Positions 2,033-63,480 of a stretch of DNA of 63,889 bases are shown piece after piece. Made by a program: the position numbers and the translations under genes. Location: assembly GCA_038087875.1 (NCBI GenBank), contig CM075991.1, forward strand, positions 5,332,112-5,396,000, in the 5' to 3' direction. The notes under the pieces were generated by a model, which saw nothing but the letters and a program-made list of their open reading frames with translations, ran no database searches and was not told the origin of the DNA. How positions within the stretch are numbered: the stretch's first letter is position 1; the number at the start of each line of letters is the position of its first letter. The stretch is from Malacoraja senta. Taxonomy: Eukaryota.

Positions 2033-2220
2033 TTGTTTAAGAAGGAACTGCAGATTTTGAAAAACCGAAGGTAGACAAAAATGCTGGAGAAACTCAGCGG
2101 GTGTAGCAGCATCTATGGAGCGAAGGAAATAGGCAACGTTTCGGGCCAAAACGTTGCCTATTTCCTTCGCTCCATAGATGCTGCTGCACCCGCTGAGTTT
2201 CTCCAGCATTTTTGTCTACC
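2033..2220. mobile_element. Penelope pLTR-derived fold-back element
   Basis: About 75-bp near-perfect inverted arms (2069-2221) plus a one-sided ~35-nt extension. TSD TGCCTCTGAATAG at 2020-2032 and 2221-2233. Confidence 0.88.
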
Positions 2221-3289
2221 TGCCTCTGAATAGCATGGCTTAAGGAGTACAGAGAGTAAATTGAGTTGAATTGATTAACTTCTGTAATGGCATGGACCCC
2301 AGCAAGAGTCATAAATGGAACATTGGCTTTTGTGAATGAAAATGATCATAATCACTTTTGCCCACATACTGGAGTGGTTATAAGAGCAGATCAGAGGCCG
2401 GGCATCCTGGAGTTAGGGAGAGGAGTGCTCATTAAGACCAACCCTTGCTAATTGTTTGATCAACCACCAACTCTGGCAGGACTGCAATGATCTAATCCGA
2501 TCCACATGTAGTGCAAGTTGCTAAACTCGTTTCTTTTGGATACAAGTTTCACTGATTAGCATGTATAAAGTGAAGTTGAAGATTTCCCAAGATGGGAACT
2601 TATTTTTAGATTTTTTTGTTGCTTCTCTTGGCAAGCGACTCTACACTCCTCATTGAACGAGGGCTGTTCTCTCACTACATATTGAGTGAGAGATACGTCA
2701 ACCTATGAGCATATTCAGAGAGTACTACAATATAGCAACAGGCCTTTCAGCCCATCCTGTCCCTGCTAACAACCCATGCTAATCCCATTTACCAGCACTT
2801 GGTGCAACCTTCTATGCCTCAGCGATTCAAGGGTGCCTTCAGATTCTTTTCAAAAGTTGAGAGACTATTTCACTAAGTTCCAGATTGAAACCACCCTCTG
2901 GGTGAAAATATTCTTCCACAGATTCCCTTTAAACCACATTCCTCATCTTAGACCTCCGCCCTCTGGTCTTAAAGAGAGAATTATTCTGCTATGGCGCTGC
3001 TCCACTTAGCACAATGACAGATGCATCTACACCACACAAATAGGTGAAGGATAAGTTCACATCGGTTGATCACCAGGACTGGCTGCAGCTTTGACGTGCC
3101 GAATTCAATGCTCAGGTCAAGACTGATTAATCCATTTTGTGTTTTTATATTGGTTATAGCAGCTAATGTTTGTCATTCATCTCAGGTATCATCCCACTGA
3201 GTGTCTTAATCAGCCATTTTAGAATGAGTCATGCTACAGTGGGTCTGAAATCAATATAAGCCAGATAGTGGGCTGGAGGCTGGAATCTT

Positions 3290-3605
3290 CTGTGCTGGAG
3301 CAACTCAGTGGGTCAGTCAGCATCTGAGGAGGAGACCAACAGGTGACGTTTCAGGTCAGGACCCTTCATCAGACTTCTAAGTCAGGAGCTCTGCTGAAAC
3401 ATCACCTGCCCATTGCATCCCCACATGCTGCCTAACCTAGTAATTTCCTCCAGTCTAAAGAAGAGTCCAAACCCAAAACGTCACCTATCCATGTTCTCTT
3501 GGGAGGCTGCCTGACCCGCTGAGTTACTCCAGCACTCTGTGTCTTTCCTCGGTAAACCAGCATCTGCAGTTCCTTGTTTCAACATTTCCTCCAGCACTTT
3601 GTGTT
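3290..3605. mobile_element. Two nested or adjacent Penelope pLTR-derived elements
   Basis: tgctggagcaactcagtgggtcag...acccttcatcag arm, an inverted arm, and a second pLTR copy at 3450-3583; tttcctccag is repeated at about 3444 and 3585. Confidence 0.7.
3343..3374 (-). ncRNA. Minimal hammerhead motif, BIN3-sense orientation
   Basis: Minus strand reads GT-CTGATGA-A-GGGTC-CT-GACCT-GAAA-C-GTC-AC. Confidence 0.62.
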
Positions 3606-6442: not shown

Positions 6443-7142
6443 TAGAGATACAGAGTGGAAACGGACCATTCGGCCCACCGAGTCCGCGCTGACCAGCGAT
6501 CACCCCGTACACTAGCACCATCTTACACACTGGGGACAATATACAATTTTAGCAAAGCCAATTAAACCTACAGACCTATAAGTCTTAGGAGGTAGACACA
6601 AAATGCTGGAGTCTTAGGAGAGTGGCAGGAAACCGGAGCACCCAGAGAAAAACCAAAGGACAAAGGACATTTATTGTCACATACACCAAATGGTGTAGTG
6701 AAATTTGTTCTTGCCACGCAGCACAAATAGACACAACATTAAAGAAATTTAACATAAAACATAAAAACATCCCCCCACAATGGATCCCACTGTGGGGGAA
6801 GGCACAAAGTCCAGTCCATATCCCCTTGTCCACCCATAGTCTGGCCTATATAGGCCTCCACAGTCGCCGCTACGGGGGCCGATGTTACAGGCCCTTCTTC
6901 GCCGGGTGATGGTGCTCCGGCGTCGGGAGAACCCGCTCAGCAGCTTGGGACACCTGGAACGGCCGTATCCCTACCGGAGTCCGCGGCTTCCGAAGCCGCG
7001 GACTCCGGTAGTCATACAAAGAATGTACACTTGTACACTCGTACACTCTTCCACGGCGTCATAGAAAGAATGTACACTCCGTACAGACAGGACTCTGGCG
7101 CTGTAAGGCAGTAACTCTACCGCTGCGTCACTGTGCCACCCC
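6443..7142 (-). mobile_element. HE1-like SINE, interrupted
   Basis: Minus-strand head ggggtggcacagtgacgcagcggtagagttactgccttacagcgccagag; V-domain split by 6654-7010; tail at 6443-6480. Confidence 0.78.
6654..7010 (-). mobile_element. 5'-truncated GC-rich retroposon inserted in a SINE
   Basis: Minus strand ...aaatttcactacaccatttggtgtatgtgacaataaaatgtcctttgtcctttg tail; interrupts the V-domain of the SINE at 6443-7142. Confidence 0.68.
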
Positions 7143-7974: not shown

Positions 7975-8185
7975 TTAGTTTATTGTCACATGGACACTAA
8001 AAATCTTTTGTTGCTTGCTGACCAGTCAGCAGAAAGACTATACATGATTACAATCAAGCCATCCACAGTGTACAGATTCAGGATAAAGGAAATAACGGTT
8101 AGTGCAAGATAAAGTCCAGTAGAGTTTGATTAAAGATAGTCCGAGGGTCTCCAGTGAGATGGATGGTAGCTCAGGACTGCTCTCG
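7975..8185 (-). mobile_element. Rex1/Babar-type 3'UTR fragment
   Basis: Homologous to 13168-13320 (cagtcagcagaaagactatacatgattacaatc); another copy at about 23010-23160 on the plus strand. Confidence 0.72.
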
Positions 8186-8186
8186 A

Positions 8187-8260
8187 TGGAGCTTACTCCT
8201 GTGTCAGCGCGATCAAGGGACCAATTGAGGTTACTTGCGCTGACACAGGAGTAAGCTCCA
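8187..8260. repeat. Perfect 24-bp inverted repeat with 26-nt spacer
   Basis: TGGAGCTTACTCCTGTGTCAGCGC (8187-8210) and GCGCTGACACAGGAGTAAGCTCCA (8237-8260). Confidence 0.95.
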
Positions 8261-9007
8261 CCGCCCGCTGTCTTGTTATCCATCGCCCGCTGACCTGCTC
8301 TTGAACTGGTCCCCTCACTGTCTGGTCTACATTAAAAGACACAGACCAGGGCAGTGAATGCCATGCAGTGTCACCCAGCGCAGCAAGTGAAGCCATGTCC
8401 TGCTCCCGGCGGCAGTCGGAATTTAAGGATTTGTACGAAGCTGCTGACATGAGCGAGGCCGGCGAGTGGGAGGTGAGAGATGTTCAGACGGAAGGCACTG
8501 CCAGAGGTGAGCGAGCCGGCAGAAGGCGCTGAGGTGGCGGCCAGTTCCGTTGTCCGGTCCCGGCGGCCGCTCGCAGCCACCCGAGCTACTTCCCTCCCTG
8601 GCCACAACGAGTGAGTTGTTGGCATGATCCCCGACCCCCTCCTTCTCAACGCTCCTGCCCTCCCCGCAACTTTACCCCTGGTCAGACTCACCACAAGCTG
8701 TGAAAGGAACTCTCCCCCCAATTTGTCCCTTGAACTAGTATCGTCATTCAGTAAGATCACAACTGTTTCAACTTGTCCCGGTGTGCTCCCGTTTTCCTAC
8801 CACCTCTCCACCTGCCGGCACCCTCCACCCCCCACCCATTCAGTAATTCAGAATGAAGGAGATTTGGGCAAATTCTTTATTTTTATATTTTATTTTTTTG
8901 AGCGTGAGAAATTCTATGTCCCGCCAGCCTTCTTTCAAAATTTAGCAACTCAAAATGGGGGTGCGTCTTCGACGCAGGTGCGTCTTCATTGCCGGGAAAT
9001 ACGGTAC
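8237..9007. mobile_element. Truncated non-autonomous DNA transposon, Tc1/mariner (Tc2/pogo-like) terminus
   Basis: GC-rich body ending gggtgcgtcttcgacgcaggtgcgtcttcattgccgggaaatacgg-TA, i.e. a TA-CCGTATTTCC terminus on the minus strand; no matching left TIR seen. Confidence 0.5.
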
Positions 9008-11500: not shown

Positions 11501-11693
11501 GACAAAAATGCTGGAGAAACTCAGCGGGTGAAGCAGCATCTACGGAGTGAAGGAAATAGGCGACGTTTCGGGGCGAGACCCTTCTTCAGACCTTCTTATT
11601 TCCTTCGCTCCATAGATGCTGCCTCACCCGCTGAGTTTCTCCAGCATTTTTGTCTACCTTCCATTTTCCAGCATCTGCAGTTCCTTCTTAAAC
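11501..11693. mobile_element. Penelope pLTR-derived fold-back element
   Basis: Inverted arms gacaaaaatgctggagaaactcagcggg.../...cccgctgagtttctccagcatttttgtc with the ccagcatctgcagttccttcttaaac end. No clear TSD. Confidence 0.85.
11558..11593 (-). ncRNA. Minimal hammerhead motif, BIN3-sense orientation
   Basis: Minus strand reads AGGT-CTGAAGA-A-GGGTCTCGCCCC-GAAA-C-GTC-GCCT; a 4-bp helix I (AGGT/GCCT) is possible. Confidence 0.62.
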
Positions 11694-13167
11694 CAACCAC
11701 ACGTGTGACTCCAAAGAAGTGTGGTTAATATGATGGTTTTACCTTGCCAAAAGTTGCCTTTTACAAATGTCAATAATTTCCTCCCATTTGCCAAAGAAAA
11801 ATACTTCCACGCAGGTAGGAAATAACCTTTCAAAGTAACCCAAATTTCCCAACCAAAGTGGGACCAACCTCTGAACTAAAAACAGGAATGATAAATACAG
11901 TGCACATGGGACTTTACTGACATACAAAAAAAAAACACAATTATGAATATGCAGATTTACAGCCGTTGCCACGGAATGCAAAAACTGCCAGCAATAGAGG
12001 GATTATACATCGATGGAATATATTTGTTCTTTTACAGGTGGGAAACTCCCAATATTGAACATTAAATTGGATCTACACTTGGATTGGTGTGTGGGAACTT
12101 TATGCATTTCATGCATGGTTGCAATATTTAACTTAAGACACATCTCCATACTTGTTCATTCAATATGCACAAGGTTGAAACTGTCTAAAATATGTAAGGA
12201 GGAAACACTTTGATATTTGCTTCATTATCACATTCCTAACATGGACAAGGGCCAAAACAACATAGTAGAAACAAACAATGCTGGTTAATGTACAAAAGGA
12301 CACAAAGTGCTGGAGTAACTCAACGGGTCATGCAGCATCCCTGGAGAACATGGATGGGCGACCTTTTGGTTCAGGATTTCTGATAAAATTCATGCATCTG
12401 TAGTTGCATTAGCTATCTTTTATTCCTCTGAATGTCTTAAACAGCTTAGTGTTTTTGTGCAAATTAACAGTAAGTAGTTGGGAAGACAGAGTATTTTGGC
12501 CTTTATTGCAAGAAGATTGGAATTTAGAAATCGGGACATAGTTACAGTTGAACAAGTTACTGGCAATGCCACGCCTCAACTACTCGGTCTAGTTTTGGGT
12601 GGACTCCTGTTTAAGAAAGAATAAATTGGCAATGGAGGCAGCCCAAAAGAGATTAGCTCGACAAGTTCCTGGGATTGGAGAGTGTGTTATCACGAGCAGC
12701 TAAAGAAATTAGATCCATATTTTTTGGAGTTTTGAAGAATTATATATAACCATACTGAAACATAAGATTCTAAGGGGATATAACAGGTAGATGTTCAGAC
12801 AAAGAGACAAGGCTCAGGCACATCAGTCACAATCATACTGAATGGTGGGGCAGGCATGTGATCTACTCCTTCCTGTTGGTAAGTGGCCTACTCCTGTTCC
12901 TATTTTCTTCTGTACCCACGTTTTTATGTTGGTTCCCATTATAGTAACTCATGTCTATCGTTGGTTTTCAGGGACCCCTCAAGTTCTTGAGCCAGAAGCC
13001 TATAGATTAATCCTGCACTCCAGAAATTTGAGCATGGAAAATCTATACTGACATTTTGTCCACAGTAAATGTTTACACTGTCGGAAGCGCCATCTTTTAT
13101 ATGAGACCTAAACCAAGGCTTCCTTTGCCGTCTCAACTCACCACAATACATTTTTTTGTTTTTTTTT

Positions 13168-13613: not shown

Positions 13614-14562
13614 AAAAGGACACAAAATGCTGAAGTAATTCAGCATGTCAGGCAACATTTTTGGAGAATCAGAATCAGAATCACACTTTATTCGCCAAGT
13701 ATGTTTTGCAACATATGAGGAATTTCATTTGCCAGGTCAGTCCATACAAATAAAAAGCAACAGATCACTCAAAAACACATTTTAACATGAACATCCACCA
13801 CAGTGAATCCTACACATTCCTCACTGTGATGGAAGGCGAAATAAAGTTCAAGTCCCTTCCCTTAGTCCTTCCTCGGTCGTGGGTCTCGAGCCCCCGTTGA
13901 CGGGACGATCTTGACTCCGGTAGCCGGCGGCGTTCGGGCCCTCCGCGTCGAGGCGATCTGTTCCCGCATCGGAAGGATGTCAGCTCCCCCGCGCCGGGCG
14001 ATCGAACCTCGCGTCGGGGCTGGTCGAACCTTCCGCGACGTTGCAGCTCCCGACTAGCCTCTCCCGACTGCGAGCCTGATGGTAAATCCGCGGTGGGAGC
14101 GATCCCAGGCAAGGGATCAGCTCCGATGTTAAGTCCGCACCCTGCGATAGGGCTCAAAGTCAGTCCGAGGAGGCTTCCAGTCCATCTATGGAAGGCCGCA
14201 GGGTGACCGGAGAATGTGATTCAAAAATTAATCACATCTCCGGCAAGGTAAGAACTTGAAAAAAAGTTTCCCTCAATCCCCTCCCCCCTCCCCCACATAA
14301 AACAAACAGAAGAACATTAAAACAAACTTTTAATACACAAAAAAACCCAAAAAGAATGAAAAAACGAACAGACTGCCGGCAGGGCAGCCTTCGCCCCGGC
14401 CCCTGGTGATATAGATGGATAGATGCCATTTCGGGTCGAGACCCTTCTTCCTGAAACGTCGCCTGTCCATGTTTTCCAGAAATGCTGCCTGACCTGCTGA
14501 GTTACTCCAGCACATTGTGTCCTTTAGTATATTTTCCAGCATTTGCAGTTCTCCGTTCCCAC
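13614..14562. mobile_element. Penelope pLTR fold-back element interrupted by a GC-rich retroposon
   Basis: Left arm 13614-13667; resumes at about 14410 (atggatagatgccatttcgggtcgagacccttcttc...) with the inverted arm running to about 14560. Confidence 0.75.
13665..14406 (-). mobile_element. GC-rich non-coding retroposon with Rex1/Babar-like tail, apparently full length
   Basis: Same module order as 15524-16405 read on the minus strand; AATAAA + (GATTCT)n tail. Confidence 0.7.
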
Positions 14563-15523
14563 AATGAGATTATCTGCCCATAATCACATTGTGATTGTAT
14601 GCACTTTGACTGATATATATATATACCTAAAAGTTTCACATGACAATAATTCACCAATGAAGTCATCCTTTGCTTGTGCTGCGGAATGATCTAATATTGT
14701 GAAGGATGCTAGAAAAATGCCTGTTTTCTCCTTGTTTGACATTTGTTCAAGATCAAAACATCACAGGCTGGATCACTGCCAGATTTAGCCGTTTCTGTTT
14801 GTTCGCCTGTAGATCTTTAAATCCAAGTCTCTTCTGAGGAAGCGTTAAGATCAAACGAGTAGTTTCAGGAGCTCCCAAGGCAGAGTGCTGGTCTTCCATC
14901 CTTGACCATCAAGGGTTTGAATCCTAGCTGACCCTTCATTGGGAAGAGTTTTCCAGCTCTTGGCTGAGCAACTGGAAGGAATACCGCACTACATCACGCC
15001 ACTACACTTCAGAAAAGGCAGCACACCTTACAAGGCTCCGTCCTGCACCACAGATGCTGATCTTGCCTCAGCTGGTTGCAAAATGAGGGTCTTGACAGCC
15101 ACAGTTTAATTTCAGACCATGAATCATCAGCACATCAACAATAAACAAAGTGACTGCCATTTTTCTTCAAAACAGGTGAAAGTTGGGCCAATTAAAGATC
15201 TGAAATATTCTACTCTAATATTATCGGATTGATGTGAGAAAACCTGGTAGGATAAAAATACATTTGTTTTACAAAATATCTGGCAGAGCTTTTTCTTCGA
15301 TGACATGCAACATTTTGGAGTAAATAGAAACCTGTTTGATTTTGAACGTACAATTATTGTGGCTATCCTTCCTGGCAATGTCCCCCCAAAACATTTGTTG
15401 GTTTGTCCATCTAATTATGGAAGATTGAATACTGATCACACACCAAAAATGACCAATAAATTTGTTTTTTTAACCAATTGGCTCAACAGGTCAACATTTT
15501 TCCTGAGACGAAAGATTGTAAAT

Positions 15524-17529: not shown

Positions 17530-18775
17530 GTGAATGATCTAAAGTGGCCTGGCACAGAGGATTTAGTGGTGGTGATGTTTTTAATCTGACTGAAGTTCCG
17601 TTACCAGTGGTGTTCCACAGGGATTAGCGTCGGGACCTCTGTTGGCTGTGGTGTATATCATTGATTGGGACAAAAATGTAAATGGGCAGATTAGCAAGTT
17701 TGGAGACGACACAAAATTGGTGGAGTTGCAGAGAGTGCAGAGGTTGTCAAAGAATACAGCATGATTATAGGTCAATTGTAAATATGGGTGGAGAAATGGC
17801 AGATGGAATTTAATCTAAACAAGTTTCTATTTACTCCAAAATGTTGCACTTAAGGAGGTCAAATGCAAGAGGAAAATATACAGTCAATGACAGGAGCCTT
17901 GGGAGCAATGATGTACAGAGAGATTTTGGGGTATGTCCATTGCTCATTGAAAGCAGCAACACAAGTGTAAAAGGTGATTAAAGTGGTGTATGGCACGCTT
18001 GCCTTCATTGCTCGGGGCATTGAGTGTGAAGGTCAGGAAGTCATGTTGCAGCTGTATAAAACATTTGGAGTATTGCATGTAGGTTTAGTTGCCACATCAC
18101 AGAAAGGATACAGAGGCTTTGGAGAGTGTGCAAAAACAGATTCATGAGGTAGAGAGTGTAGAGAGTGCTAACCCTAAGGAGAGGGTGGATAAACTTGGGA
18201 TTGTTTTTGCTGGAACATCAGTAGTCAGAGACCTAAAGGAGTACACAATAATATGAGAGGCATGGATAAGGTAGAAGATTTTTCTCCCCACATGCAATTG
18301 GAGTTGTACCCCAAGATCGACAAAATGCTGGAGTAACTCGGCGGGACAGGCAGCATCTCTGCAGAGAAGGAATGGGTGACGCTCCCGGTCATCCCGGATG
18401 ACCCGAAACATCATCTATTGCTTCTCTCCAGAGATGCTGCCTGTCCTGCTGGGTTACTCCAGCATTTTGTGTCTATCTTCGGTATAAACCAGCATCTGCA
18501 GTTCCTTCCTACACACTGCACCTCAAGATCCTTCTGCATATCATGTTCCTAAGATTGCTGCTATTTACTGTCTATTTTTATCTTACATTTCACCTTTTCT
18601 CCCCCCATGATGGTAATGTCAAATACTAAAGGCATAGCTATAAGGCAAGAGGGGGAAATACTAAAGGAGATGTGCGAGGCAATTAAGAAAAAAACAATGT
18701 GGGAAGTGTCTGAAACGCACCACCTAGAGGTCGGCGGAAACAGATACAGCAGTGATGTTTGAAAGACATGTGGAA
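17530..18775 (+). mobile_element. Old degraded CR1 RT fragment
   Basis: gttaccagtggtgttccacagggattagcgtcgggacctctg (VTSGVPQG..GP) and agcaagtttggagacgacacaaaattgg (KFADDTK-like); interrupted by 18319-18516. Confidence 0.78.
18319..18516. mobile_element. Penelope pLTR-derived fold-back element
   Basis: Inverted arms; imperfect TSD TGTACCCCAAGATC (18305-18318) / TGCACCTCAAGATC (18517-18530). Confidence 0.8.
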
Positions 18776-20922: not shown

Positions 20923-21027
20923 TGTCTGGAGGCCATTATTGAGTTACCTGGGCCATTCAATTGAGTTTGAGGCATGTGTGCTCGACACAGCCTGCCCATC
21001 TGAATCAACCAAGCACAGATATAACTA

Positions 21028-21188: not shown

Positions 21189-21239
21189 CACAGATATAAC
21201 TAGTTCTTCAGCACTGGCGATGTTATTGCAGGAGGGATT

Positions 21240-22374: not shown

Positions 22375-22428
22375 GAAATATAAGATGTGTGCGGAAATGA
22401 AGAAAAGTTAATTCTGCTCATCGCCTAC

Positions 22429-45983: not shown

Positions 45984-46059
45984 TAAAACAGAAATTAATT
46001 GGCATCAAGGAGGAAAAAACTCCAGCAATTGAAGTCACACTATAAACAAAGGAACACAG

Positions 46060-46270: not shown

Positions 46271-47721
46271 ACAAAGGAACACAGGTCATTGGAGGTTGAT
46301 CATTCATGCTATACAGTATCGTTGTGCGAGTTACTTAGAGCGGTGTCCCAGGCCAAAACTATCTTCACTGTTTCATTAATAATCTTCATTATATCTCAAG
46401 ATCAAAAGTGAGAATATTCACTGATGATTGCACAACATTCAATTTCACTTACAATTCCTCAGGATATGGAGCAGCCTATGCCGAAATGCAACTAGAACTA
46501 AACAACATTCAGTTGAGGGCTGTTAAGAGGTGACATCAATGGCAGTTACAGCCAAAGGGGCTGGAGAATGGTCTCAACCCGAAGTTCCGTCTGTCCATTC
46601 CCTGCTCGGATGCTGCCAGACCTGCTGAGTTCCTCCAACACTTTCCGGCAAGAGGGAGTTTCAGCACCACTCCTGACACTCAATGGCAATATCACTACGT
46701 CTCCCCCACCGTGAATATCCAGGAGTCTCCACTGAACAGACACTCAATGGAATGAGCTGGAAGGAACAGCAGATGCTGGTTTACACTGGAGATAGACACA
46801 AAAAGCTGGAGTAACTCAGCGGGTCAGGCAGCATCTCTGGAGAAAAGGAATAGGTGATGGATGTTTTGGGTCGAGACGCTTCTTGAGACCATGACCTGAA
46901 TGAGTTGCAAACACTGTGGCTATAAACAGCTGTCGAGAAGTTGGCCATCCTATGCCAAATGACTCACCTCCTGACATCCCAAAGGCTTTTCATCATTGCC
47001 AAGGAGCAAGTCGTGAGTCAAATGGAAAACTCTCTGCCTGGTCAAGTGCAACTACCATGAAGCTCAACAATATCCACCACATATAGGGATGGGCAATAAA
47101 CAGAAATCCTAAAAAAAACAAATAAATTCCAAACAAACTTTGTTCCCAGACTGTCACCCTGCAGCTGTGTTAATTGAAGGCAATTAAATAATTCATATTT
47201 ACTATTTATGGGGGTAATTCAATCATTAACAGAAAAATAACTTTCATATCACTTGACTGGGCAGAGCTTTCTATTTCTATGCTGATGTGATTGTATTTAC
47301 TGTCAGCCAACAAAATAATTTCAATACTTATGAGGACCCCTGTCTCATCAGTTCAGTGCTGTGATTACAGATTTAAGCCTGTTGTGGATAAGTAAGTTTA
47401 TTGGCCAAGTAGTCACATACAAGGAATTTGCCTTGGTGCTCCGCCCACAAGTAACAACATGACATCCAGTGACAGTTACGAATGACTCAGAAACCACTAA
47501 ACATTAATAATAATAAGACATTAATTATATACATGGATACATTAACGTATCCAAAGAGTTCTGTGGACCGAGGAAGTACGAACTTGAATTTCAACCACAC
47601 CTTTCCTGACCTTGGGGCATCCCTATGAGCTTTATAACCAACTAGGTAATGCCAAATGCAGGGTGTGTTAAATCAGCTTGCCAGCACTCTTGCATGCGAA
47701 CACAATGGAAGTGAACTAAAG

Positions 47722-48000: not shown

Positions 48001-49884
48001 AAAAAATATATATTTTTAAAGGTGTGCAATTATATGACTTCATGTTATGAGAGCCTTTTGAGTCTGCAGCCCTATCAGGACAATAAATAATTTTGTCACC
48101 CTCAAAAATGAACGTGCCTTACACTGTCAATGTAAATTCATACAGTCACGTGATGGGAGGATGCCATGCAATTCGCCACTGACTTTGCACTAGCTCCGTT
48201 AAACAGCAATCCAGTTAGTCCCACTCCCCCGCTTTATTCCCCATCATAAGAGCATTAGAAATAAAAAGAGTCGTGGGCCATATGGCACCTCAAGTCTGCA
48301 CTGCTCTTCAATACGATTATGACTGATCTGATCACTGGCCTCAACTCCACTTTCCTGCCTGTTCCACAAAACCTGCAAATGTTTTCAAGCCTTTGAGAAA
48401 CGTGAACACAATGCCTGCTCTCATCCATCAGCTGCCTTCAACTCAAGAAGTAAAACCTGGAACCACCAATTGCAAAAAAACTGTTCTGTGCTCCCTGGCT
48501 CATTTCACTCAGTGAGCTGTGATTGGTGTTTTGCTGACTGACATCCTCATTTGATTTCACAAAAGGTTAAAAAAAAAATCCTCTCAGTGGTACTAAAATA
48601 CACAGATGGAGTGAGTAGCTGCCAATTAACTGTTTACTTGTTGCTTAGTGACATAGCACCCGTAGTAGCAACATAACTGAACTCATTTCAAAATTGTAGG
48701 CAGCCCCAAATATCAAAATGAAGCGATTGCTGGCTTTCCGAGCCACTGATCAAAGCCCAAATTCGTCTTTCTGACAGTTTTACCATCACTGACTCGGATA
48801 ATAGCGAAGGTGCAGGAAAAGAAATCAGAGGCTGTCACAGCGAAGCGCGGAGATTGAGGCAACAAGCTTCAACTATTTTTTTAAATCCTAAGCAAACCAG
48901 TTGCATTGAACATTAGAGCAGCACATTCGCACAATGGATGTGGATCCTCACAAGGTAAGCTTCCATATCCCTCAGAAATATAAAGTGGAATGAAGAAAAA
49001 GTCCACGGTTGTGGCATCTATTTCAATCAAAAATTCTCTTTATTAATTTTTCATAATTTCTTTGCTCGGGTTAGTGGCTTGTGTTTAATGGTACCAGTAC
49101 TGTGTAATCAAGTAATTCCTCTCTACCAAGGTAGTGATTGTTGGCAAGATTCCTCATAGCAGACGCGTTCTCTATTATGTCCACTCCAAAATCTAGCACA
49201 GCGTTAACGAGCACCTCACAACAAGCATAGTCTTCACCAAGAATTCATACCTCAGCACCCAGCTGCTTGTTTGCCAAGTAGCACAAAAATCCCTGTCCAC
49301 TTGTACATTTTAAAATCATGGATAACCCATTGAAATCACATCAAGGCACTGGAGAAATTTCAACAACGACGCCTCTGCTAAATCCTCTGAAGCAGTTTGC
49401 AGGATGGGCACACAATGTCAATGTCCTCTTTCAGACCACCATCCCCAGTAGCAAGGTTCTGATACCAGTCAACCAGATCCAATGAGCAATCAAATCACTA
49501 CCATGCCAACACCCGACTTACCGCTCAGAAACTCTCCTCCGAACTTTGCCACAAGAATGGATTTCCAGAAGGACAAAGAAAATGCTTCACAGAGATTTTG
49601 TAGAAAGGTAATATCCTTTATTGAAATGGGAATTTTCTGCCAGTAAACTACTCAAATTGCCCACGGATGATGTTGCAGAACCTGCCTAGACTGACCCAGC
49701 CACCACGGAACAAATAGAAGTGAACGAGAAGCAAATCCTCGGAGGCATGAAAGATGAAAAACACACACACACACACACCCCAGCGCTAATGCAACGTTGC
49801 TCGGCTGTGCCCCATTAGGGATTGGATCTCAAACTATACTTGAAACTATTTTTTGGACTCTGATCCATTTAAGCTTCAAAGACA

Positions 49885-50073
49885 GAGACACAGTGCTGGA
49901 GTAGCTCAGCGTGTCAGGCAGCATCTCTGGAAAACTTAGATAGGCGACGTTTTGGGAAAAGGGTCCAGACTGAAAATGTCACCTATCCATGTTCTCCAGA
50001 GATGCTGTCTAGCCCGCTGAGTTACTCTAGCACCGTCTCTTTTTGTATATACCAGCGCCTGCAGTTTTTTGTA
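49885..50073. mobile_element. Penelope pLTR-derived fold-back element
   Basis: Inverted arms; TSD TAAGC(T/C)TCAAAGACA at 49870-49884 and 50074-50088. Confidence 0.83.
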
Positions 50074-51686
50074 TAAGCCTCAAAGACATTCACTTTCTGC
50101 CCCACTGTGGAAATTCTTGGGGAGTGAAATATATATTCCCCATCAAGACCAGTAGGTTCAATTAGATTTATTGCTTTTATATCCTATCTTCTTCATGCCA
50201 ATTTAATACATTTTGTTCCTATCATTCATGTCTTGCACTGAGCAGACAATAGACAATAGGTGCAGGAGTAGGCCATTCGGCCTTTCGAGCCAGCTGTGAA
50301 AATGTGCAGAACCACAAAATACTGTTGGCACCACAACCTCAGAATGGAAACTTTTTTTTCCTTAAATACATGGCTTTGATTTGAGAGTGAAAAAGCCACT
50401 GTAGGGTTAAACGGTATGACACTACTTGGAAAAAAATCAAGCTGATATCTGGAAAGTTGAATAAACTGGGCAACTGTATAAACCATTATTCACAGAGCTA
50501 TTCAGGTTGAAGGCATGCAGAGAGGTTTTGCAAAGCCATTATGTTAAAATGCACAATATGATTGTAGAATGCATGATGACATCATGCCTTGCGCAGCCAA
50601 CGTCACTGGAAGAATTCTTCCTCGGTTTGTCAGGTGTGCAATTCAAGCCATGAATCAAGTGAATGCAACAGAGAGAAGAAGCAACATCGGATATTTAAAC
50701 AGCCTTCAGGAATGCTTGCTTCCCCAATGTGATCCTACACGTCCGTCCATCCACCCACCAGGAAGTGAAATGGAAACCAGTCTGCTTCAGCCAAGTGGTT
50801 TAAAATGTAAGGCAGTGTTAGCAGTATTTTTTTTTTATGGCTTAATGAAAGGGAAATATGAATCCATTCATTGAACCACAGGCATGATCTAAGTCGATGA
50901 ATGAGCAAAGAACACTCGCCCCAGAGACAGGAAAGATTTGCATGAGGTGCTAATCAGTAAATCTCCACAATTATAAATAGATAAATGCCTAACTTTCCCA
51001 CCACACTAGATCAATTGCCTGTGAAAGAAAAAGTGCAGAAATATGAGATTTATACTACATTCACAAGCATGGACCACTGAATAAATCCTAAGCTTCAATG
51101 GACAGTACAGACAGGAGTGTTACAACTGCTTTCTTGATATATAACTGCTGTTCAGTGAAGTTTTTCCCTGGGTCTGTAATCTACTGCGAAGCACAGCATA
51201 ACAATAACAGAACCTGCAGCAGACGTCTTAAATTTTACAAGTTAACTGCTACATTCTCAGAAATGGTGTCGATGATGTTATCACAACTTTGGAATTGTAA
51301 AACCAGGACAAAGTAAAAGCGGCACTCAATGTCAGTAACAAAGTTGGAGACTATGACAAAAGAACGAAACATGGGCCAAATATAACAGTCTGTGATCAGA
51401 AATCCATGGCTTCCGTCAGCTTGTGCACTTTAACATCGAAAGGCATCAGAATATGGATGAGTTTATTTCCACCATGAGCAATTCCTCACCGGAATGTGTC
51501 TCCAAGACAAAACAAACATTGTATGCAGGGCTGCAGGGCTGCATGGCAAGATCACAATGCTTATTCCTGGAATGCGAACAGTCCAGCCCAGATTACCATT
51601 GTACAAAACATGAAACCAAAGGAAACATTCATGATCTCAAGAAAGCGAAGAGAGGCTGAAGACAAAAGTACTGAATTTAAGAGTTG

Positions 51687-51787
51687 TTTAAGAAAGAACT
51701 GCAGGTGCTGGAAAAAATCAAAGGTAGACAAAAATGCTGGAGAAACTCAGTGGGTGAGGCAGCAATTATGGAGCGAAGGGAACGACG
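51687..51787 (-). mobile_element. Single-arm Penelope pLTR copy
   Basis: tttaagaaagaactgcaggtgctgg...ggagcgaagg, flanked by TTAAGAGTTG repeats (51677-51686, 51788-51797). Confidence 0.78.
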
Positions 51788-53514
51788 TTAAGAGTTGGAT
51801 TATCATTTTAAGTTCTTGCAGGTGTTATGGGGAAACAAGGAATAAGGGAATAGTGCAAGAAAGTATTTAATGTTCAAGATTAGTCACAAGCCTATGGAAT
51901 GGAAGCAGCACCTGAATGACCTGCTCCTGCTTCTCTTTCTTACGTTCCATGTTCCACAAACTACCGCCATCATTCCCCATCGCCACCGATTTCCAATTAG
52001 TGCAGTAAGATGTTGCACCGGAAACGCTCTCAAACTTACCTTGGTTTCCTCGACTGATTTAGCACAATGCTAGTATATTGGTCAAACAGTGGTCAAAATG
52101 TTGTAGCCTGCACAACTTCCAACAGAATCTCAATAAAACGGAGAAACCACCTGTTTTTATGTTTCACCTGCTCCTTCAGCAAAGTCTCTGAGCCCACCTG
52201 CCTGTCAAAGACAGAACTTGCTTCAAGTTCACTTGCTCTCTACCACTTGTACACAACGTTGTCATACATAGATCAACAAGAATCAATAACCTCAACCCTA
52301 GTCTTTTCCTTGTGCTTTCTAGTTAATTCTGAGTGATTTAGAATGTTGCATTTTTAATAGTTGTGACAAAGGTTACTGGCATCACATAATTCCTTGTGGC
52401 TTGGGAATGGTATGTGACACTTAACTTCTAAGAAGGCCTTCAGAATTAGATGTGAAAGAAAATAGGATGAGGGAATACTGATAACACATTTAGCTGTTTT
52501 ATATCCTGCCACCAAAATACTGTGCCCAGTATGACTATAATTCCTTTGCTTTGGAACAAATGGCCTGAATGGCTTCACTTAACCAACATGCGCACAAGAA
52601 TCAAAGATGAAAACATTATTTCACAGATCCTGAAAACTTAAAAACACCTTGCTTTATAGCCACCAAATATTTATCTACTGAAAAACAAACTGCTTGAGGA
52701 ACTAAGCAGGTCAAACAGCATCTGTGAAGGGAAATGGACAGATGACGTTTTGGATCGAGTCCTTCTTCAGACTGAAGGGTTGTTTGTTGTTCCTCCTCCA
52801 GCAGTTTATTTTTTGCACATCCTCCAGGAGTATGTTTTTGCTCAAGATTTCAGCATCTATAGTCTCTTGTGTCTCCATTTATCTGGTAAACTCACACTGA
52901 AACCTAACAGCAACATGATGTAAACGTTTTAAGATTCTTTCAAAGCTTTCTCTTCAGTCATCTGTTCTTACTCTGGTCTCCTTAACTCATGAAAGGTTGA
53001 ATGTGTTCATATTTCCTTCTGTTGGACTTCTTGGCACTTTGCTGGTATTACTATTTTTGTTACAGCTTGATAATTCATTGCCTTTTTTACCTCAAAGATA
53101 AATATGAACAACTTAAAATATGCCTATCACCTCAGAGGGTGGTGGAGGCCGGTTCTCTGGAATACTTTCAAGAGTGCTAGATAGGGCTCTTAAAGATAGC
53201 GGAGTCAGGGGATATGGGGAGAAGGAACAGGGTACTGATTGTGGATGATCAGCCATGATCACATTGAATGGCGATGCTGGCTCGAAGGGCCGAACGGCCT
53301 ACTCCTGCACCTATTGTCAACTGTCTATTGTATCACCATGAAACGACTCGAATGATAAAGTCAAGGAGTTGTACAATATAGAAACTGGTCCTTCGGCCCA
53401 CTGCATCAAAACTTACCATAATGCACATCTACGCTATTCCCACTTGCTTGCATTAATTCCATATCACTCTATGCTTGCTCTTTCAAGTACTTGCCCAGAT
53501 GCTTCCTAAATGTT

Positions 53515-53701
53515 TAAGAAGGAACTGCAGATGCTGGTTTAAACCGAAGATAGACACAAAAAGCTGGAGTAACTCAGCGGGACAGGCAGCATCTCTGAGA
53601 GAAGGAATGGATGGCGTTTCGGGTCTGAAGAAGGGTCTCGATCCGAAATGTCACCCATTCCTTCTCTCCAGAGAAACTGCCTGTCCTGCTGAGTTACTCC
53701 A
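53515..53701. mobile_element. Penelope pLTR-derived fold-back element inserted in a CR1 3' fragment
   Basis: Inverted arms with central ctgaagaagggtctcgatccgaaatgtc; TSD GCTTCCTAAATGTT at 53501-53514 and 53702-53715. Confidence 0.87.
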
Positions 53702-54995
53702 GCTTCCTAAATGTTGTTACTGTTCCTGCCTCCACCACCTCATTTAGCAGCTCATTTAAAATACCAACCTGCAAAACCGAGTATCAAATTTAATGTATCC
53801 CTCAGTACTCCTTTCATCCTCTACCCTCCAGACACTGACTATCCACCCGATCTATGCCTCTCATAATTTTATACACATATTAATTTGTACATAAGCAATA
53901 AATTAAGCATCATTATACTGAAGAAAAATAATCAAAAGCAAATTAGCGGGTCATTTTTTTCTATTACTAATTGCGGGATCTTGCTGTGCAGAAATTGTCT
54001 GACAGTACCTTCCAAAACGACAGTTTTAAGTAATTAGCATTTTGGGACACACTGATAAAATTAAAAATCGTAAAATACAACTGCACACTTTCTCAAGTCG
54101 CAGCTGGAATATAGAACACACTTAATATTAAACTTTGGAATGTACAGTTGCCAAATTTGTATGTGTGGTTAATGCAGCAGTCTTCACAACTTACCAACAT
54201 CAATCAACATTAGGTTGGGTCAGAGAGTGCGATGAAGCACACAATACCTACATTTATTTTTAAATAATCTAGAATCACCTGTGATAGATGAGGATTCTGT
54301 AGCATTTAACTGTGCAAAAATCCTAAGGCACATAATAAGATGTGACCATACAAAACTGACATCAAACTACAAAAAAGGTATAGAATAACATCTGTGATCC
54401 ACTAAACATATCTGAAAGCTAGTTTCCAAATTTCCTTAAAGACAAGTTGGCAAAGGTGCAAGTTTAAGAATAAGGGGTAAGCCATTTAGAACGGAGACGA
54501 GGATACACTTTTTCTCACAGAGAGTTGTGAGTCTGTGGAATTCTCTGCCTCAGTGGACGGTGGAGGCCGGTTTTCTGGATACTTTCAAGAGAGAGCTAGA
54601 TAGGGCTCTTAAAGATAGGGGATATGGGGAGAACGGGGTACTGATTGGGGATGATCAGTCATGATCACATTGAATGGTGGTGCTGGCTCGAAGGGCCGAA
54701 TGGCCTACTGCTGCACCTATTATCTATTGAAATGTTAATTTTTAAATCATTCAATATTTAGACTGAAGATTTAGAGACTGAAGAGGCTTCAAATTTCACT
54801 GTGTATGAAGGAACGGCAGATGCTGGTTTATACTGAAGATACACAAATTGCTGAAGTAACTCAGCGGGTCAGGCAGCATCTCTGCAGAAAAGGAATAGGT
54901 GACATTTCGTGTCAGAACCCTTCTTCAGACCCTTCAGAAGAAGGATTCAGACCCGAAACATCACCTATTCCTTTTCTCCAGAGTTGCTGCCTGAC

Positions 54996-55570
54996 TGCGG
55001 AGACTGCAGGACCTGGAGCTGGTGCGGCGGGGTCCGGAGCGGAGACTGCGGGACCTGGAGCTGGTACAGCGGGGTCCGGAGCGGAGACTGCGGGACCTGG
55101 AGCTGGTGCGGCAGGGTCCGGAGCGGAGACTGCGGGACCTGGAGCTGATGCAGCGGGGTCCGGAGCGGAGACTGCGGGGCCTGGAGCTGGGGCGGTGGCC
55201 CGGAGCGGAAACTGCGGGACCCGGGGCTGATGCTGTGGTGGGCCGTCTCGGAGCGGAGACGGCGTTCCGGCTTTCGGCGGCGGCGACATCACCACGGAGG
55301 TCCGCTGGACTGGAGGGCGGCATCTTCGGCCTGGATCGATCGCCTCAGCGCAGAGGGAGAACAAGGAGGGAAGAGACGGAGACTAAGACTTTGCCTCCAT
55401 CACAGTGAGGGTGTGCTTGGTGAACTCACTGTGGTGGATGTTTAATTTGTGTTTATTGTATGTTTTGTTATTATTGGTTCTGTGTATGACTGCAGGCATC
55501 ACAATTTCGTTCAGACCGAAAGGTCTGAATGACAATAAAGGAAACTTGATTCTTGATTCTTGATTCTTGA
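54996..55570 (+). mobile_element. 5'-truncated GC-rich retroposon with internal minisatellite
   Basis: Tail aatttcgttcagaccgaaaggtctgaatgacaataaag + (CTTGATT)n; carries the shared TCCATCACAG hairpin. Confidence 0.7.
54997..55260 (+). repeat. 42-bp GC-rich minisatellite, about 6 units
   Basis: Unit gcggagactgcgggacctggagctggtgcggcggggtccgga starts at 54997, 55039, 55081, 55123 and 55165, then degenerates. Confidence 0.95.
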
Positions 55571-58500
55571 CCTGCTGAGTTACTCTAGCATTTTGTGACT
55601 CTAGCATTCGCTGCCATTGATGTTGGGTGGCATGAATTAGTATTTATCACATCACTAAAAGAGCACCTGTAAGATATAATTTTTTTTAGATAAGATATAA
55701 TTTGTTTTATCGCACAATTAGTTTGCCTATACCATCTAAGCCCAGTATTTTCATGTTATTTTATATTGGATTAATAGTGAGGCAATCGGTAAAATGCCCG
55801 TCTACCAAAGCTAAAGGTGTGGAGATGCAGCTCACACCATCAACCTTTGTACATTTAAGAATCTGACCCCCACCTCAATATATAATGCTGAGCACCATCA
55901 AACTCAAATTTATTTTGATGGCAAATTATGGGTTATTGATAAATTCACCAATGCTGCAATAAAAATCAGGATTGTAAAAGAGGGTCAGAAGTAAAGGAGC
56001 CGAGACCTTGGACAGCTGTTGAACTGAAGACAAAATGGAGCGGCATGAGCATAGAGTGATCTGTAGTTGGTTTATTTTATCCACTTGATGCCTTTAAAAA
56101 CTCTTCACCGGGCAATCAAACATATGAACTAACTTCGTTCACCCAGAGAGTTGTGAATTTGTGGAATTCTTTGCCACAGAAGGCAGTAGAGGCCAATTCA
56201 CTGGATGAATTTAAAAGATGTTTAGCTAGAACTCTGGGGCTAGCGGAATCAAGGGATGTGGGGGGAAGGCAGGCACAGGTTACTGATTGTGGATGATCAG
56301 TCATGATCACAATGAATTCAAAGGGCCGAATGGCCTCCCCTCCACCTATTTTCTATGTTTTTATGTTTATATTTCCCTGCACAAGCACTCTGAGAATAAT
56401 TTAGATTTTCTTTTTCTTTATGACTTGGTTTCAGCTGTGAGAGGTGGGAAATCTGTAGATAAGAAGCAGTAAAAACCCTTGACTAAGTGTTCAACCCTCA
56501 TCAAGAAATTAATTAAACAATAGCTATGTCAGCTGTTTTAACGGCAATCCTTTGTGTGTGATTCACCATTATATCTTTGATTTGACCCGATCAAAAGCTT
56601 GTTATATTGAGGTCTAATGCTGGCTTTGTATGCAAGATAGCTATTATTCTGATCCAGTACACGTGTTTCTAAGGCAACATGCAAGGTCTACAGGGTAGGC
56701 AAGCGCATTAACTCATCCAGGTACAAACACTTCAGTAAGCTAATAAAAGACAGCATCCGCCAACAGACTTGTGTATTGGACTGTGAAAACATGCTCATGA
56801 TGAAGGCATTTTCCAAGTGTTTAAGACAAACTCTGTGTTAGTTTAAAATCTATCTGCACTTATATTTTCCCAAGTTTCCTTACTTCCATATAATCTTAAT
56901 ACATAAATAAATTCACATTATAATTTTTAGCATAAATTTGGCATTAAAACACTTTCCAACATTCGCAAGTCTATAAAAGACATATAAAACGCAGGCTCTC
57001 TGCTGCTGCAAGCTATTGGTGTTCACGATATGCGTGTGGCTTTAATACTCAGTATTGCAGGTTTGCCAATGGGAGCTGAATTCAAGTTGCATTAGAAAGG
57101 CCATTTAATAATCTTTGTCAATTATTTTCACTTTGAATTAGATATTTATTTTATTTTGGACTGTTCCAATTATCATTATTTTGTCCTCTTAACTTCGTAA
57201 ACATATGTGGTTTTATTTTTCTCATAAATCAGAGAAGAAAAAAACTTCTATTTTTATGCCACTGGGCATCCAAAGAGATTAAAAAATAATGAAATGCACT
57301 GTCACTATTTGAAATTACAGTATTTGACCACACTTTCAAATCACTAGAGAAAAACAAAAAAACTCAAATGCTGCAAATTTAATATAAAAATTAAAAATGC
57401 TGGAAATACTTAAGTCAGGGGAGAGAAACAAGGTTAACATTTCCGTTTGAAAAGATTTTCATCAGAAATAGTAAAAATTAGAAATTGAACCGAGAAAGGA
57501 GAGAAGAGAGTAAAAAGTAAATGTCTGTGATAGTACCAGATTAATTGATACACATTTTGTGTAATGTTAGCTAAGAGGTGATGAAGGCATGTCACGCGCA
57601 GCTGGTCTGTCTGGCGAAGTATTGGGAACTGAACAAGAATGGAGAAAATAAATGTGCTGGAACTGCCTCATACAAAACCCTGTGGTTGTCGGGAATATGA
57701 GATGCACAAGAGTCAGGTGATGATCGTGGTGTCGTTTGGCAATTGACCTACTTCACAGAAGTTGAACACCAGTTCTCTGGCACCTTCTGGAGCATGGCCC
57801 GCAGCAGTGAACGTCTGGCCAGTGTCTCACAGTCCTCAATTCCTCTGAAGGTCCTTCAAACATGCACAGCCCACTTCTACCTCCTCCCCATGATTCACAA
57901 CTACCTGATCTACTGAGTGCTTCCAGCAGTCTTCTTTATTTTAGAGTTTCAACAACCACAGTGTTCCAATAACTCAAAGTTCTGGCACTTTATTCCTCTT
58001 GTTCTCATTCACTCTCTTCTGGTTGCATCTCTTGAAGTCAGTTCAACATTCCGCACTTTGTCAACCAGCATGCCTGCCATTTGTCTCATTCAAACTCTGT
58101 CGGTTCCACCTCTGCAAAGACCTTTTTCCATCACCCCTCTCCTTTCTCTACAACTTTAAACAGTTTCATTTCCAACTTTTCCTCGTCCTGATGAAAAATC
58201 ATTGACTTAAAAGGCTAACACAGACACTGCCTATTCTCCTGACTATTTCTTTTTTTAAACTTAGGAATTATTTTATTGGCTGTGAAATCAGAAATTATAA
58301 AATAAATCGGGCTTCTTCCCTACTTCCCTTCTTCAATACTGCACTTAAATATCAGCTTGAATTGCCTATTCAAGTTCGAGAAGGTTATCCCAATGGTATT
58401 AATATCATGTTGCCTGTTGTAATGGTCCAACACAGGTATGAGCCGTTCCTTTCAAGTATCATTTCCCTTACTTGGCAGGTTGATGGCAGCAGTGCACCAA

Positions 58501-61816: not shown

Positions 61817-62053
61817 CTGCGGAGAAGAATGTTACAGTCCTTGCTTAAAATAAATTAATTGCCAATGAAATATAACAGCTTCATGAGTGCTAAGTAGACC
61901 GTGAGTTTTTTTTCTCCAGAGACTGGAAATTAAACATACCAATGCCTCAATCAGTCAATAGGCTTGTTTTAAAGCCACCATTAAAACTGTAGGTGGACAC
62001 AAAATGCTGGAGTAACTCAGCGGGACAGGCAGCATCTCTGGAGAGAAGGAATG

Positions 62054-62086
62054 GGTAACGTTTCGGGTCGAGACCCTTCTTCAGAC
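62054..62086 (-). ncRNA. Minimal hammerhead motif, BIN3-sense orientation
   Basis: Minus strand reads GT-CTGAAGA-A-GGGTC-TC-GACCC-GAAA-C-GTT-ACC (GUU triplet). Lies in a single-arm pLTR copy at 61994-62084 flanked by ACTGTAGG repeats. Confidence 0.6.
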
Positions 62087-63480
62087 TGTAGGGCCTGTTT
62101 CCACGCTATCTGACTCTATTATCTTATTGCTGTTTGTGGGAATTTGGTTACCTGGATGTTCATTTCATTGCTGTAGATGGGATTCGGCTACACTCAAATT
62201 TAACACTTCATTTCCCACAAGAATGACTACATTTTCCTTCTCCGGCTGCAAAGACTTTGGAATGCAGAAGTCAGTGATGGAATTAATATGCAACTTCTTT
62301 CTTCTAATTCAAAGATGCATAAAATAATCATTATATTTTCTACTGCTGACTGCAACAACTCTTCAAATTTCTATATAGTTATATAGTTATAGATTCATAG
62401 AGTCTTACAGCGTGGAAACAGGCCCTTTGGCCCAACTTGCCGACCAACATGTCCCATCTACCCTGGTCTCACCTGCCTGCGTTTGCCCCATATCCCTCCA
62501 AACCTATCCTATTCATGTACCTGTGTTAATGTTTCTTAAACGTTGCGCTAACACCTGCCTTAACTACCTCCTCCAGCAACTTGTCCATACACTCATCACC
62601 CTTTGTGTAAAAAAGGTAACCCTCATGTTCCTATTAAATCTTTCCCCCCTCACCTTATATCTATGGTTCTTGATTCCCCTACTCTGGGCAAGAGATTCTG
62701 TGCGTTTACCAAATTTATTCCTCTCATGATTTTACTTTGGGATTTCCTGTGGTCACAGAAGACAGATTTAAAAAGCATGTCTTTCTGTTTTACTAGATTC
62801 AATGGATACAAAATGGAAGGTTAAAAAAATAAAATAGAAATTTAGGCAGTACAATCCAAAGTGTTTCAAGTTGCCTTTTACAAAAATCATGCTTTTCTCC
62901 AAAGGCAGCTACATAATTCTGAAGATAAGTAATACATTAGTTGCTTTATTTCCAGCATTCAGCTTAACAAAATTCTCAACATCCAGCTTGTAGAATGTCA
63001 ATTATCACTTCAGTGTGAGTCATGCAACATTCACTTTTTCTTTGTCAGTGACCATTTAGCTACATTACATAACATACATCTAAATCTCTCATGTTATTTT
63101 TAAAGTATAATGGGTGCAAGAGCTTGTGCAAGCAAAAGCACATCTTGAGGTTCTAATGCACTGCAATTGTTGTTCAGTTCCAATATGTAATCATATACTC
63201 ATGTTGCACTGTCATTGTGGATAGTTCAAGGCTTAGTATTCACTGTATAAATTGACTAGCTCATGCAACAATGATCGTTCTCTCTGATAGGCTACAAACT
63301 GTTAATGTACTCTGTTTGTTTCAGTTGCCATAATCAAGTCTTAAATTAGTTTGCCATGAGCAAATAATCTGTCTCCTCGAAAATAATTTGCCAATGATGA
63401 GGGATTCATATTGTGAACATTTCTATTGTTAGATGGCTCTTTCCCTATGGGCATATTTTAAGATTTTATAGGTAATGTTA

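Follow-up and report, generated by a model that had tools for sequence, protein, structure and literature searches.

The Malacoraja senta contig CM075991.1 carries, at positions 5,332,112 to 5,396,000, a 63,889-nt stretch (hereafter the window) crowded with short repeats that fold back on themselves, and the question raised by this locus is what these repeats are and how each came to be an inverted pair. A first-pass annotation made from the sequence alone had proposed a distinct class of hammerhead-bearing mini-retroelements. We find that the window fold-backs and single arms are the 3′ ends, or pseudo-long terminal repeats (pLTRs), of an endonuclease-bearing (EN+) Penelope-like element (PLE) with a Neptune-type linker, and we judge it rather probable that the fold-backs are very short insertions of that element, each likely made afresh by priming from both 3′ ends of one staggered cut.

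The evidence comes from the window and from a sample of contigs C1-C24, drawn at set positions as 180 stretches, each 9.5-10 kb long (140 in a first and 40 in a second sample), amounting to 1.78 Mb, or 1.84 Mb with the window; small contigs are over-weighted and four stretches adjoin the window. Sampled loci carry labels such as L002, L007 or L136, end classes were taken from the ends of local alignments, and the pLTR profile, built from 20 seed copies, yielded 45 arms in the window.

Two 3′ ends and one tail per fold-back

Sample and window together hold 850 arms, which make up 161 fold-backs and 528 single arms. The arms end either at model position ~97-101 (short) or at ~129-133 (long), the long form carrying a tail of ~33 nt. 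Both ends could be classified in 113 of the 161 fold-backs, and 95 of these combine a long with a short end (8 are long+long and 10 short+short), where 56.5 mixed pairs are expected (p=4e-14); the second sample alone gives 25:2:2 in the order mixed, long+long and short+short (p=5e-5). Of 158 fold-backs, 58 are bounded by a target-site duplication (TSD) with a score of at least 9, where shuffled flanks give 3 of 158, and among these 58 the tail lies on exactly one arm in 48 of 48 (48:0:0). TSD length ranges from 9 to 18 bp with a mode at 13-14 bp, and among arms at least 90% identical to the reference a TSD accompanies 38 of 71 fold-backs versus 39 of 213 short single arms. The pairing of short with long also recurs in the four kilobase-long inverted copies examined (L007, L171, L182 and L186/L237), and the single arms split nearly evenly, with 230 short, 210 long and 88 other ends (n=528). 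Small inverted remnants beside single arms have the opposite end class in 10 of 12 cases, a figure counted without a downstream control.

From this geometry, which is observed, we infer a reaction in which the GIY-YIG domain would nick both strands ~13-14 bp apart; priming would then begin at the short start site from one nick and ~33 nt downstream, at the tail site, from the other, a single RNA probably serving both. Both cDNAs would mostly halt near the 5′ edge of the hammerhead, either at the RNA 5′ end or at a reverse transcriptase (RT) stop, and their two 3′ ends would then join through microhomology or through palindromes at model -2..6 and 13-27, with repair filling in the rest; a failure on one side would leave a single arm. 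Two-nick priming is supported by the one-sided tail, the TSD mode, the unique junctions and the non-nested arms of the same subfamily. In L1 twin priming, both target nicks prime on the RNA and leave an inverted 5′ segment inside the TSD; there the second primer is internal and the segments do not overlap, whereas the M. senta arms copy the same stretch from two sites 33 nt apart. According to the available text of PMC11167929, an Anolis PLE protein, predicted to be dimeric, cuts and extends both strands in vitro, beginning at two neighbouring internal sites that agree with the tail, and has no need of ribozyme cleavage.

We would give an even chance to a more specific form of this reaction, in which two-ended priming is obligate: a dimeric RT-endonuclease would hold one RNA at two starts 33 nt apart and extend both nicks, the fold-backs would be its fossil record, and the pile-up of ends at the ribozyme edge would mark the start of the RNA. 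If true, one reaction would yield the inverted pLTR, the tail on one side only and the 50:50 division of single copies. The origin of the inverted pLTR and its one-sided tail is an open point of PLE biology, for which the papers, in their available text, offer self-priming or endonuclease resolution without a test; the fold-backs give a quantitative prediction, one short plus one long start per insertion, that is testable in the existing in vitro system. Our literature search, which left most subscription journals, Repbase and Dfam outside, found no paper deriving the inverted pLTR from two-ended priming or dealing with this repeat in cartilaginous fish.

A motif, TCCAGCAT, occurs twice in the pLTR, ~30 nt apart at model 77-86 and 107-116 (e.g. 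window 46217-46256), once before each 3′ end. The copy at 107-116 is predicted to base-pair with the invariant block AGATGCTG, and in this model the two copies are a candidate binding site for each protomer.

Junctions and the origin of the two arms

A non-autonomous mini-element resembling a short interspersed element (SINE) or a miniature inverted-repeat transposable element (MITE), one that is copied as an entire hairpin and whose RNA the hammerhead releases, would have a fixed structure; the 73 young fold-back junctions fall into 68 types. One type does occur four times and another three times, as such a unit would have it, and a high copy number, private TSDs, a narrow size (median 193 bp) and the fold-back joints found in RNA of a related organism point the same way. 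Even in the recurrent junction class, however, the central base comes from the tailed arm in some copies and from the short arm in others, the ends are unequal, unlike the terminal repeats of a MITE, the TSDs span 9 to 18 bp, a motif-compatible hammerhead core is kept in only 22 of the 161 fold-backs, and five window hairpins, folding at -120 to -168 kcal/mol, sequester the motif. The mini-element reading is thus largely refuted, and we consider it highly improbable. The distinct ribozyme-bearing class proposed in the first-pass annotation is not supported, given the same junction count, the presence of the same architecture in kilobase-long copies with an open reading frame (ORF), and cores that are mostly lost or buried.

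The junctions are dominated by few-base overlaps, short inserts and two palindromic hot spots, TCAGTCTGA at model -2..6 and a 15-mer at model 13-27 in the youngest subfamily. Palindromes at inverted junctions have been attributed to self-priming on an antisense template (PMC3846280), and the tail has been put down to resolution by the EN (PMC8557442), in the parts of both papers available to us. In its full form, this explanation holds that one cDNA primes itself by snapping back, or that an antisense template is used, and that the endonuclease resolves the palindromic intermediate with the tail kept on one end. The clustering of window and sample junctions in palindromes (overlap of 15 in 7 cases) agrees with it, as do the T>C-scarred arms described below, where antisense-strand nucleic acid sometimes enters copies. 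Yet a simple snap-back would leave one arm as a partial copy of its partner, and in 35 of 67 clean mixed fold-backs it is the short arm that extends further 5′, by 8 nt or more; the tailed arm does so in 12, and 20 are similar (p=0.001; median arm start 5 for short and 14 for tailed arms). Since the tail is on the other arm, neither arm contains the other in those 35, which are therefore not one cDNA copied back on itself. Many junctions, moreover, have 0-4 nt of overlap or inserted bases and no hairpin loop, and the tail ends coincide with the in vitro RT start sites in the available text of PMC11167929. We regard self-priming as rather unlikely.

The arms of one fold-back could also derive from two independent insertions, or from two RNAs at one cut, with the one-tail rule resulting from asymmetry of an enzyme dimer. 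Arms do diverge almost like unrelated copies, differing by 12.8% within pairs versus 14.3% in shuffled pairs (they have therefore not been homogenised), and 18 of 138 fold-backs have arms in different subfamily groups. The other 120 have both arms in the same group, and the arms of 71 usable fold-backs share 55 non-CpG private variants in 3929 sites, an excess of 2.6x over the permutation mean that surpasses all 2000 permutations (p=0.0005). At L002, three inverted pieces consisting of tail only precede a short sense arm inside the TSD; each ends at about the short site, which suggests collision on one template. Separate RNAs are, in our estimate, distinctly improbable, and two-nick priming on one RNA is probably the correct version.

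A further mark on some arms bears on both of these alternatives. Hypermutation of T to C in the element sense is significant in 4 of the 850 arms (L206:2026-2120, L136:226-356, L105:294 and L156:4307; A>G in none, and no scarred arm among the 45 of the window), and a fully changed T-run is extrapolated to occur 4 times genome-wide versus ~50,000 unchanged, with sense-strand controls at 0. The adenosine deaminase ADAR has a preference for its 5′ neighbour, and the antisense 5′ neighbours of the scars (U 7/10, A 14/31, C 11/29, G 6/50) form an ADAR-like pattern. At L136 only the tailed arm is scarred, which favours two RNAs, and that arm has no close sibling (best 92%); at L206 the scar seems to continue into the tail-to-tail neighbour, like an edited hairpin RNA written back.

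Several points weigh against priming from both ends of one cut. No reaction intermediate was seen among the copies examined, and the template RNA is undefined because the full-length 5′ end of the element was not recovered from the long copies searched. End classes depend on local alignment ends; 48 of the 161 fold-backs are unclassed and 18 of the 113 classified are long+long or short+short, although these may be chance neighbours because none has a TSD at threshold. Long single-arm copies have a TSD scoring at least 8 in 13 of 25 cases (a loose search with no null), so that a TSD needs no second cDNA. The variants shared between arms could, finally, stem from co-active source loci or limited conversion and not from one RNA.

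Fold-backs and single arms in the window

The window arms found by the profile form 15 head-to-head fold-backs and 15 single arms; a 16th, old fold-back (25453-25606) was seen as an inverted repeat, its left arm having been missed by the profile. The about 20 fold-backs with TSDs of their own that had been proposed are thus real as a type but number 15 (16 with the old one), and they measure 146-291 bp where 90-220 bp had been given. The suggested one copy per ~3 kb becomes ~30 pLTR loci, or one per 2.1 kb, of which only half are fold-backs. A clean TSD is present at only 7 of the 15, degraded ones bracket two more (18310-18515 and 20723-20921), and six have none. All six TSD pairs named earlier were confirmed, at 2020/2221 (13 bp), 21014/21189 (14), 23321/23533 (15, exact), 35988/36190 (15), 46046/46271 (14) and 53501/53702 (14), and a seventh lies at 49870/50074 (15 bp with 1 mismatch). 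In contigs of two other organisms the 23321-23532 insert is missing and the target is single-copy, with 23320 joined directly to 23533, and this empty site identifies a true insertion with a duplicated target. The features are as follows, fold-backs being listed without strand.

2020-2233: fold-back of the youngest subfamily, A2; left arm tailed; arms joined within the 15-nt palindrome of model 13-27; TSD 2020/2221 of 13 bp
3294-3584: old fold-back or two adjacent arms, 75 nt apart; core on the minus strand, 3372-3345; no TSD found
11501-11693: fold-back, A2; short left arm to model 1, tailed right arm from 34 (non-nested); no clear TSD
12278-12376, minus strand: single pLTR arm, subfamily C
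13614-13675, minus strand: single pLTR arm fragment
14419-14564: fold-back, left arm truncated; tail on the right arm
18310-18515: fold-back, subfamily B; tail on the right arm; degraded 14-bp TSD, 2 mismatches
20723-20921: fold-back, C; tail on the left arm; possible degraded TSD, 3 of 15 positions mismatched
21014-21202: fold-back, A2, without core; tailed arm starting at model 31, the predicted cut site; 14-bp TSD 21014/21189; private variant common to both arms
21280-21489, plus strand: GIY-YIG C-terminal fragment of the same Penelope-like element, left end approximate
22271-22386, minus strand: single arm, model 2 to short end; 11-bp TSD
23321-23547: fold-back, A2; left arm short (1-97), containing the core 23428-23401 on the minus strand; right arm tailed (26-131); 2-nt junction microhomology; TSD 23321/23533, 15 bp exact, or 18 bp with 1 mismatch from 23318/23530
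23863-24080: fold-back, C; junction within the TCAGTCTGA palindrome, immediately 5′ of the core; left arm tailed; core 23993-24020, helix III decayed
24724-24792, plus strand: single arm fragment
25453-25606: fold-back of an old subfamily, arms 70% complementary
25629-25836, plus strand: GIY-YIG endonuclease C-terminus with one internal stop; ORF stop 25834-25836
25837-25938, plus strand: pLTR segment, pyrimidine-rich, with CAGT at its end
25937-25968, plus strand: motif of a minimal type I hammerhead, with a 2-bp helix I, CUGAAGA, an extra A, a 4-bp helix II with a 4-nt loop, GAAA and the ACGU palindrome; predicted cut after 25966
25969-26033, plus strand: 3′ part of the pLTR to the short end, no tail
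26612-26766: old fold-back; tail on the left arm; right arm truncated
26812-26934, plus strand: single tailed arm, C
35988-36204: fold-back, C; short left arm extending beyond the core into the pyrimidine tract, tailed right arm from 69; 15-bp TSD 35988/36190
40135-40732, minus strand: second copy with the GIY-YIG end joined to the pLTR; C, core decayed
45182-45282, plus strand: single tailed arm
46046-46284: fold-back, A2; right arm tailed; core 46143-46170, where position 17 is U; private variant in both arms; 14-bp TSD 46046/46271
46561-46644, plus strand: old single arm
46760-46888, minus strand: single tailed arm
49870-50088: fold-back, C; tail on the right arm; 15-bp TSD 49870/50074, 1 mismatch
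51686-51788, minus strand: single tailed arm; 10-bp TSD
52684-52772, minus strand: old single arm, inverted remnant upstream
53501-53715: fold-back, B; tail on the left arm; core 53625-53652; 3-nt microhomology; 14-bp TSD 53501/53702
54800-54995: fold-back, B; right arm interrupted by a tandem repeat rich in GC
55566-55602, plus strand: short arm fragment; may have been displaced from the end of the 54800 element
61984-62089, minus strand: single arm from the 5′ edge of the core; core 62084-62057

The GC-rich repeat that breaks the right arm of the 54800 fold-back has units of ~42 bp and occupies 54995-55230.

The hammerhead motif and the 5′ stop zone

The pLTR motif fits the minimal type I hammerhead consensus of PLEs (CUGANGA-H, GAAA, UH and a palindromic helix III) in all young subfamily consensuses, so the earlier identification stands as far as a match to the published consensus can carry it. 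The string then given is exact as written at 25939-25966, with C17 at 25966, but it is exact only this once, in a single-arm copy and in no fold-back. The viroid precedent invoked for its extra A is unneeded, an extra base after A9 being ordinary in PLE minimal hammerheads (PMC4209133, available text). A motif-compatible core is kept in 4 of the 15 window fold-backs and in two window single arms; the surviving cores, placed by the first-pass annotation in the centre of the fold-back, sit inside an arm and not in the loop. An Rfam scan of the window returned hairpin look-alikes scoring under their cut-offs, with microRNA (miRNA) families as best matches, and no hammerhead family at E<=10.

Across 12 subfamily consensuses, 9 of 11 core positions are invariant versus 50 of 92 downstream positions (p=0.11), and some blocks further downstream are just as fixed. 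Variation falls on N7, loop II and position 17. In 24 copies, 93.8% of the cells of helices I and II are paired, with two-sided change in 0 of 6 pairs, which is not above shuffles. A low decay of the core within copies (6.0% versus 8.8%) was set aside as an artefact of alignment selection. In 5 of 6 references a competing hairpin is the favoured fold, helix I has only 2 bp, and the active tandem dimer of 25920-25990 was modelled, at the level of secondary structure only, at -2.2 versus a minimum free energy of -23.8 kcal/mol.

Of 456 young arm starts, 188 lie at model -6..+6 and 6 at model 31, the cut site, and the templates were therefore mostly uncleaved; ribozyme-cut templates were accordingly rejected as the main source. 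A small cleaved fraction may exist, since the 6 starts at model 31 compare with 1.9 per position over 20-60 (p=0.015, uncorrected), where other positions reach 7 and positions 29-32 together give p=0.10. RNA reads of a related organism cover the pLTR heavily, and the 27,364 of 12.9 million records that fit the stretch show no piles of starts or ends and no depth step at 25966, a comparison made insensitive by the many paralogous copies. By analogy with D. virilis, an intron running from GTAG to CAG between the ORF stop and the core was considered; no spliced join appeared in the genome (one exact pattern), the sample or the RNA joints listed.

The palindrome TCAGTCTGA stands just before the core at 25934-25941, is initiator-like, and follows the pyrimidine tract in the manner of a 3′ splice site. 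The TCAGTCTGA region is the main 5′ stop zone of all copies.

Judging from sequence, a ribozyme active at the level of the master element, perhaps assisted by protein, is plausible. Activity of the fold-backs is unlikely because their motif is truncated or paired with its complement, and the hammerhead, inherited from the master pLTR, is most likely a passenger in them.

The parent element

Longer copies that are continuous with the pLTR extend upstream of it into an ORF in which RT motifs of the PLE type are accompanied by a CX4CX2C linker and a GIY-YIG domain, and this upholds the Penelope origin first proposed. They translate LSRGLTF, IKPADKG, FYLLPKIHKP..GRPIVS, DVQSLY, GLAMG and YIDD, which we take, from the usual motif names, to be those of a PLE-type RT. 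Pfam searches of two fragments of long copies gave no RT match, while PF01541 matched L017 at E=2.4e-4 and 21.8 bits, just below the 22.6 cut-off. In the window, 25629-25836 aligns with the C-terminal part of the GIY-YIG domain; the motif does follow a GIY-YIG C-terminus in the copy originally drawn at 25601-26031, but that copy begins near 25629, and 25519-25606 is a separate older arm. The 25629-26033 copy has 5745 candidate genomic matches at first look, of which 40 were scored. The linker reads CNRRKCYTC in L012, L017 and L025, a CX2-5CxxC between RT and EN that, in the available text of PMC8557442, marks Neptune and occurs also in Nematis; by its sequence, then, the element carries the Neptune-type linker feature. 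Among 303 long ends, no sequence common beyond the tail defines the element. Related DNA is present in sequence runs of several other organisms.

Relation to known insertion types

The family is an additional instance of a known PLE insertion type whose architecture is already in print: PLE-type RT upstream, GIY-YIG, an inverted 5′-truncated copy with a tail at one end, and a TSD are all found. The partial tandem typical of EN+ elements, with a direct 5′ pLTR ahead of the complete ORF, would lie at the full-length 5′ end, which the long copies searched did not yield. As far as the available text of PMC3846280 and the Fig. 2 legend of PMC8557442 describe them, EN+ units such as Pen2a_Av of Adineta vaga share with the window units a head-to-head inverted, 5′-truncated copy, a 30-40-bp tail at one end, a TSD, junction palindromes or microhomology and GIY-YIG at the C-terminus. 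The M. senta units differ in being mostly ~190 bp without an ORF, in numbering ~10^5 per genome (extrapolated), in their 13-14-bp TSDs, and in being numerous enough to measure the one-tail rule and the arm geometry.

The metazoan PLE hammerheads of PMC4209133, in the text available, resemble the M. senta motif in the U-rich 5′ flank, CUGANGA-H, a G10.1-C11.1 helix II, GAAA, palindromic 15.2-16.2 and NUH. The motif has the same GAAACGUC/U as the fugu and Xenopus examples in the text of Fig. S3, where none of the examples is a cartilaginous fish, and a helix I of only 2 bp as in D. virilis, Culex and Oikopleura; unlike that set, the youngest M. senta subfamily has U17 and a stronger competing hairpin over GAAA. 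The Poseidon element PAc of Anolis carolinensis (PMC11167929, available text) is alike in its two RT starts defining the tail, AC-rich ends and uncleaved RNA template, but it belongs to the Penelope/Poseidon clade, unlike the M. senta family with its Neptune-type Cys linker; that text reports single-strand products and leaves inverted pLTRs unexplained. Non-LTR retrozymes, in the available portion of a survey that sampled one chondrichthyan (bioRxiv 10.64898/2026.07.22.740005), are likewise non-coding, hammerhead-bearing, PLE-derived vertebrate repeats, but they form head-to-tail tandem arrays with a hammerhead per unit, whereas the M. senta copies are scattered as single arms or head-to-head pairs. 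Neighbouring arms no more than 120 bp apart number 161 head-to-head, 47 direct and 21 tail-to-tail, and most copies are dispersed.

Abundance and minor features

The very high abundance suggested at the outset is borne out: outside the window we count 82 fold-backs per Mb, which extrapolates to the order of 10^5 per genome, with 58 per Mb on the largest contig rising to 106 per Mb on contigs C9-C24, and 235 per Mb in the window. The pLTR pieces make up 4.3% of the sampled bases, and mean divergence of the subfamilies ranges from 3% to 21%. Such pieces are open to mislabelling as MITEs, SINEs or miRNA hairpins, and they put very stable hairpins into host transcripts. No strong target motif was found in 51 sites, and the TSDs are 63% A+T. 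Targeting to CR1 was rejected, with 8 of 157 fold-back flanks versus 74 of 600 random sites and hence no enrichment (only the two CR1 copies of the window were used). A tail-to-tail arrangement with shared flanks recurs at L004, L016, L021 and L028 (~1800-2030), and this set is probably a segmental or tandem duplication, not new insertions.

The window also holds CR1-like copies of a long interspersed element at 41367-44918 (plus strand) and 30167-31684 (minus strand), the former with long open frames for ORF1 and ORF2 and one frameshift near 43950; the assignment to CR1, with an esterase-like ORF1 and an endonuclease-RT ORF2, is our presumption from familiar motifs. Two related MITE-like elements at 45623-45992 and 63480-63778 have long terminal inverted repeats starting GGCCTGTCCCAC / GCCCCTGTCCCAC and bear no relation to the pLTR family, and other inverted repeats outside that family lie at 8172-8275, 6965-7017 and 62090-62426.

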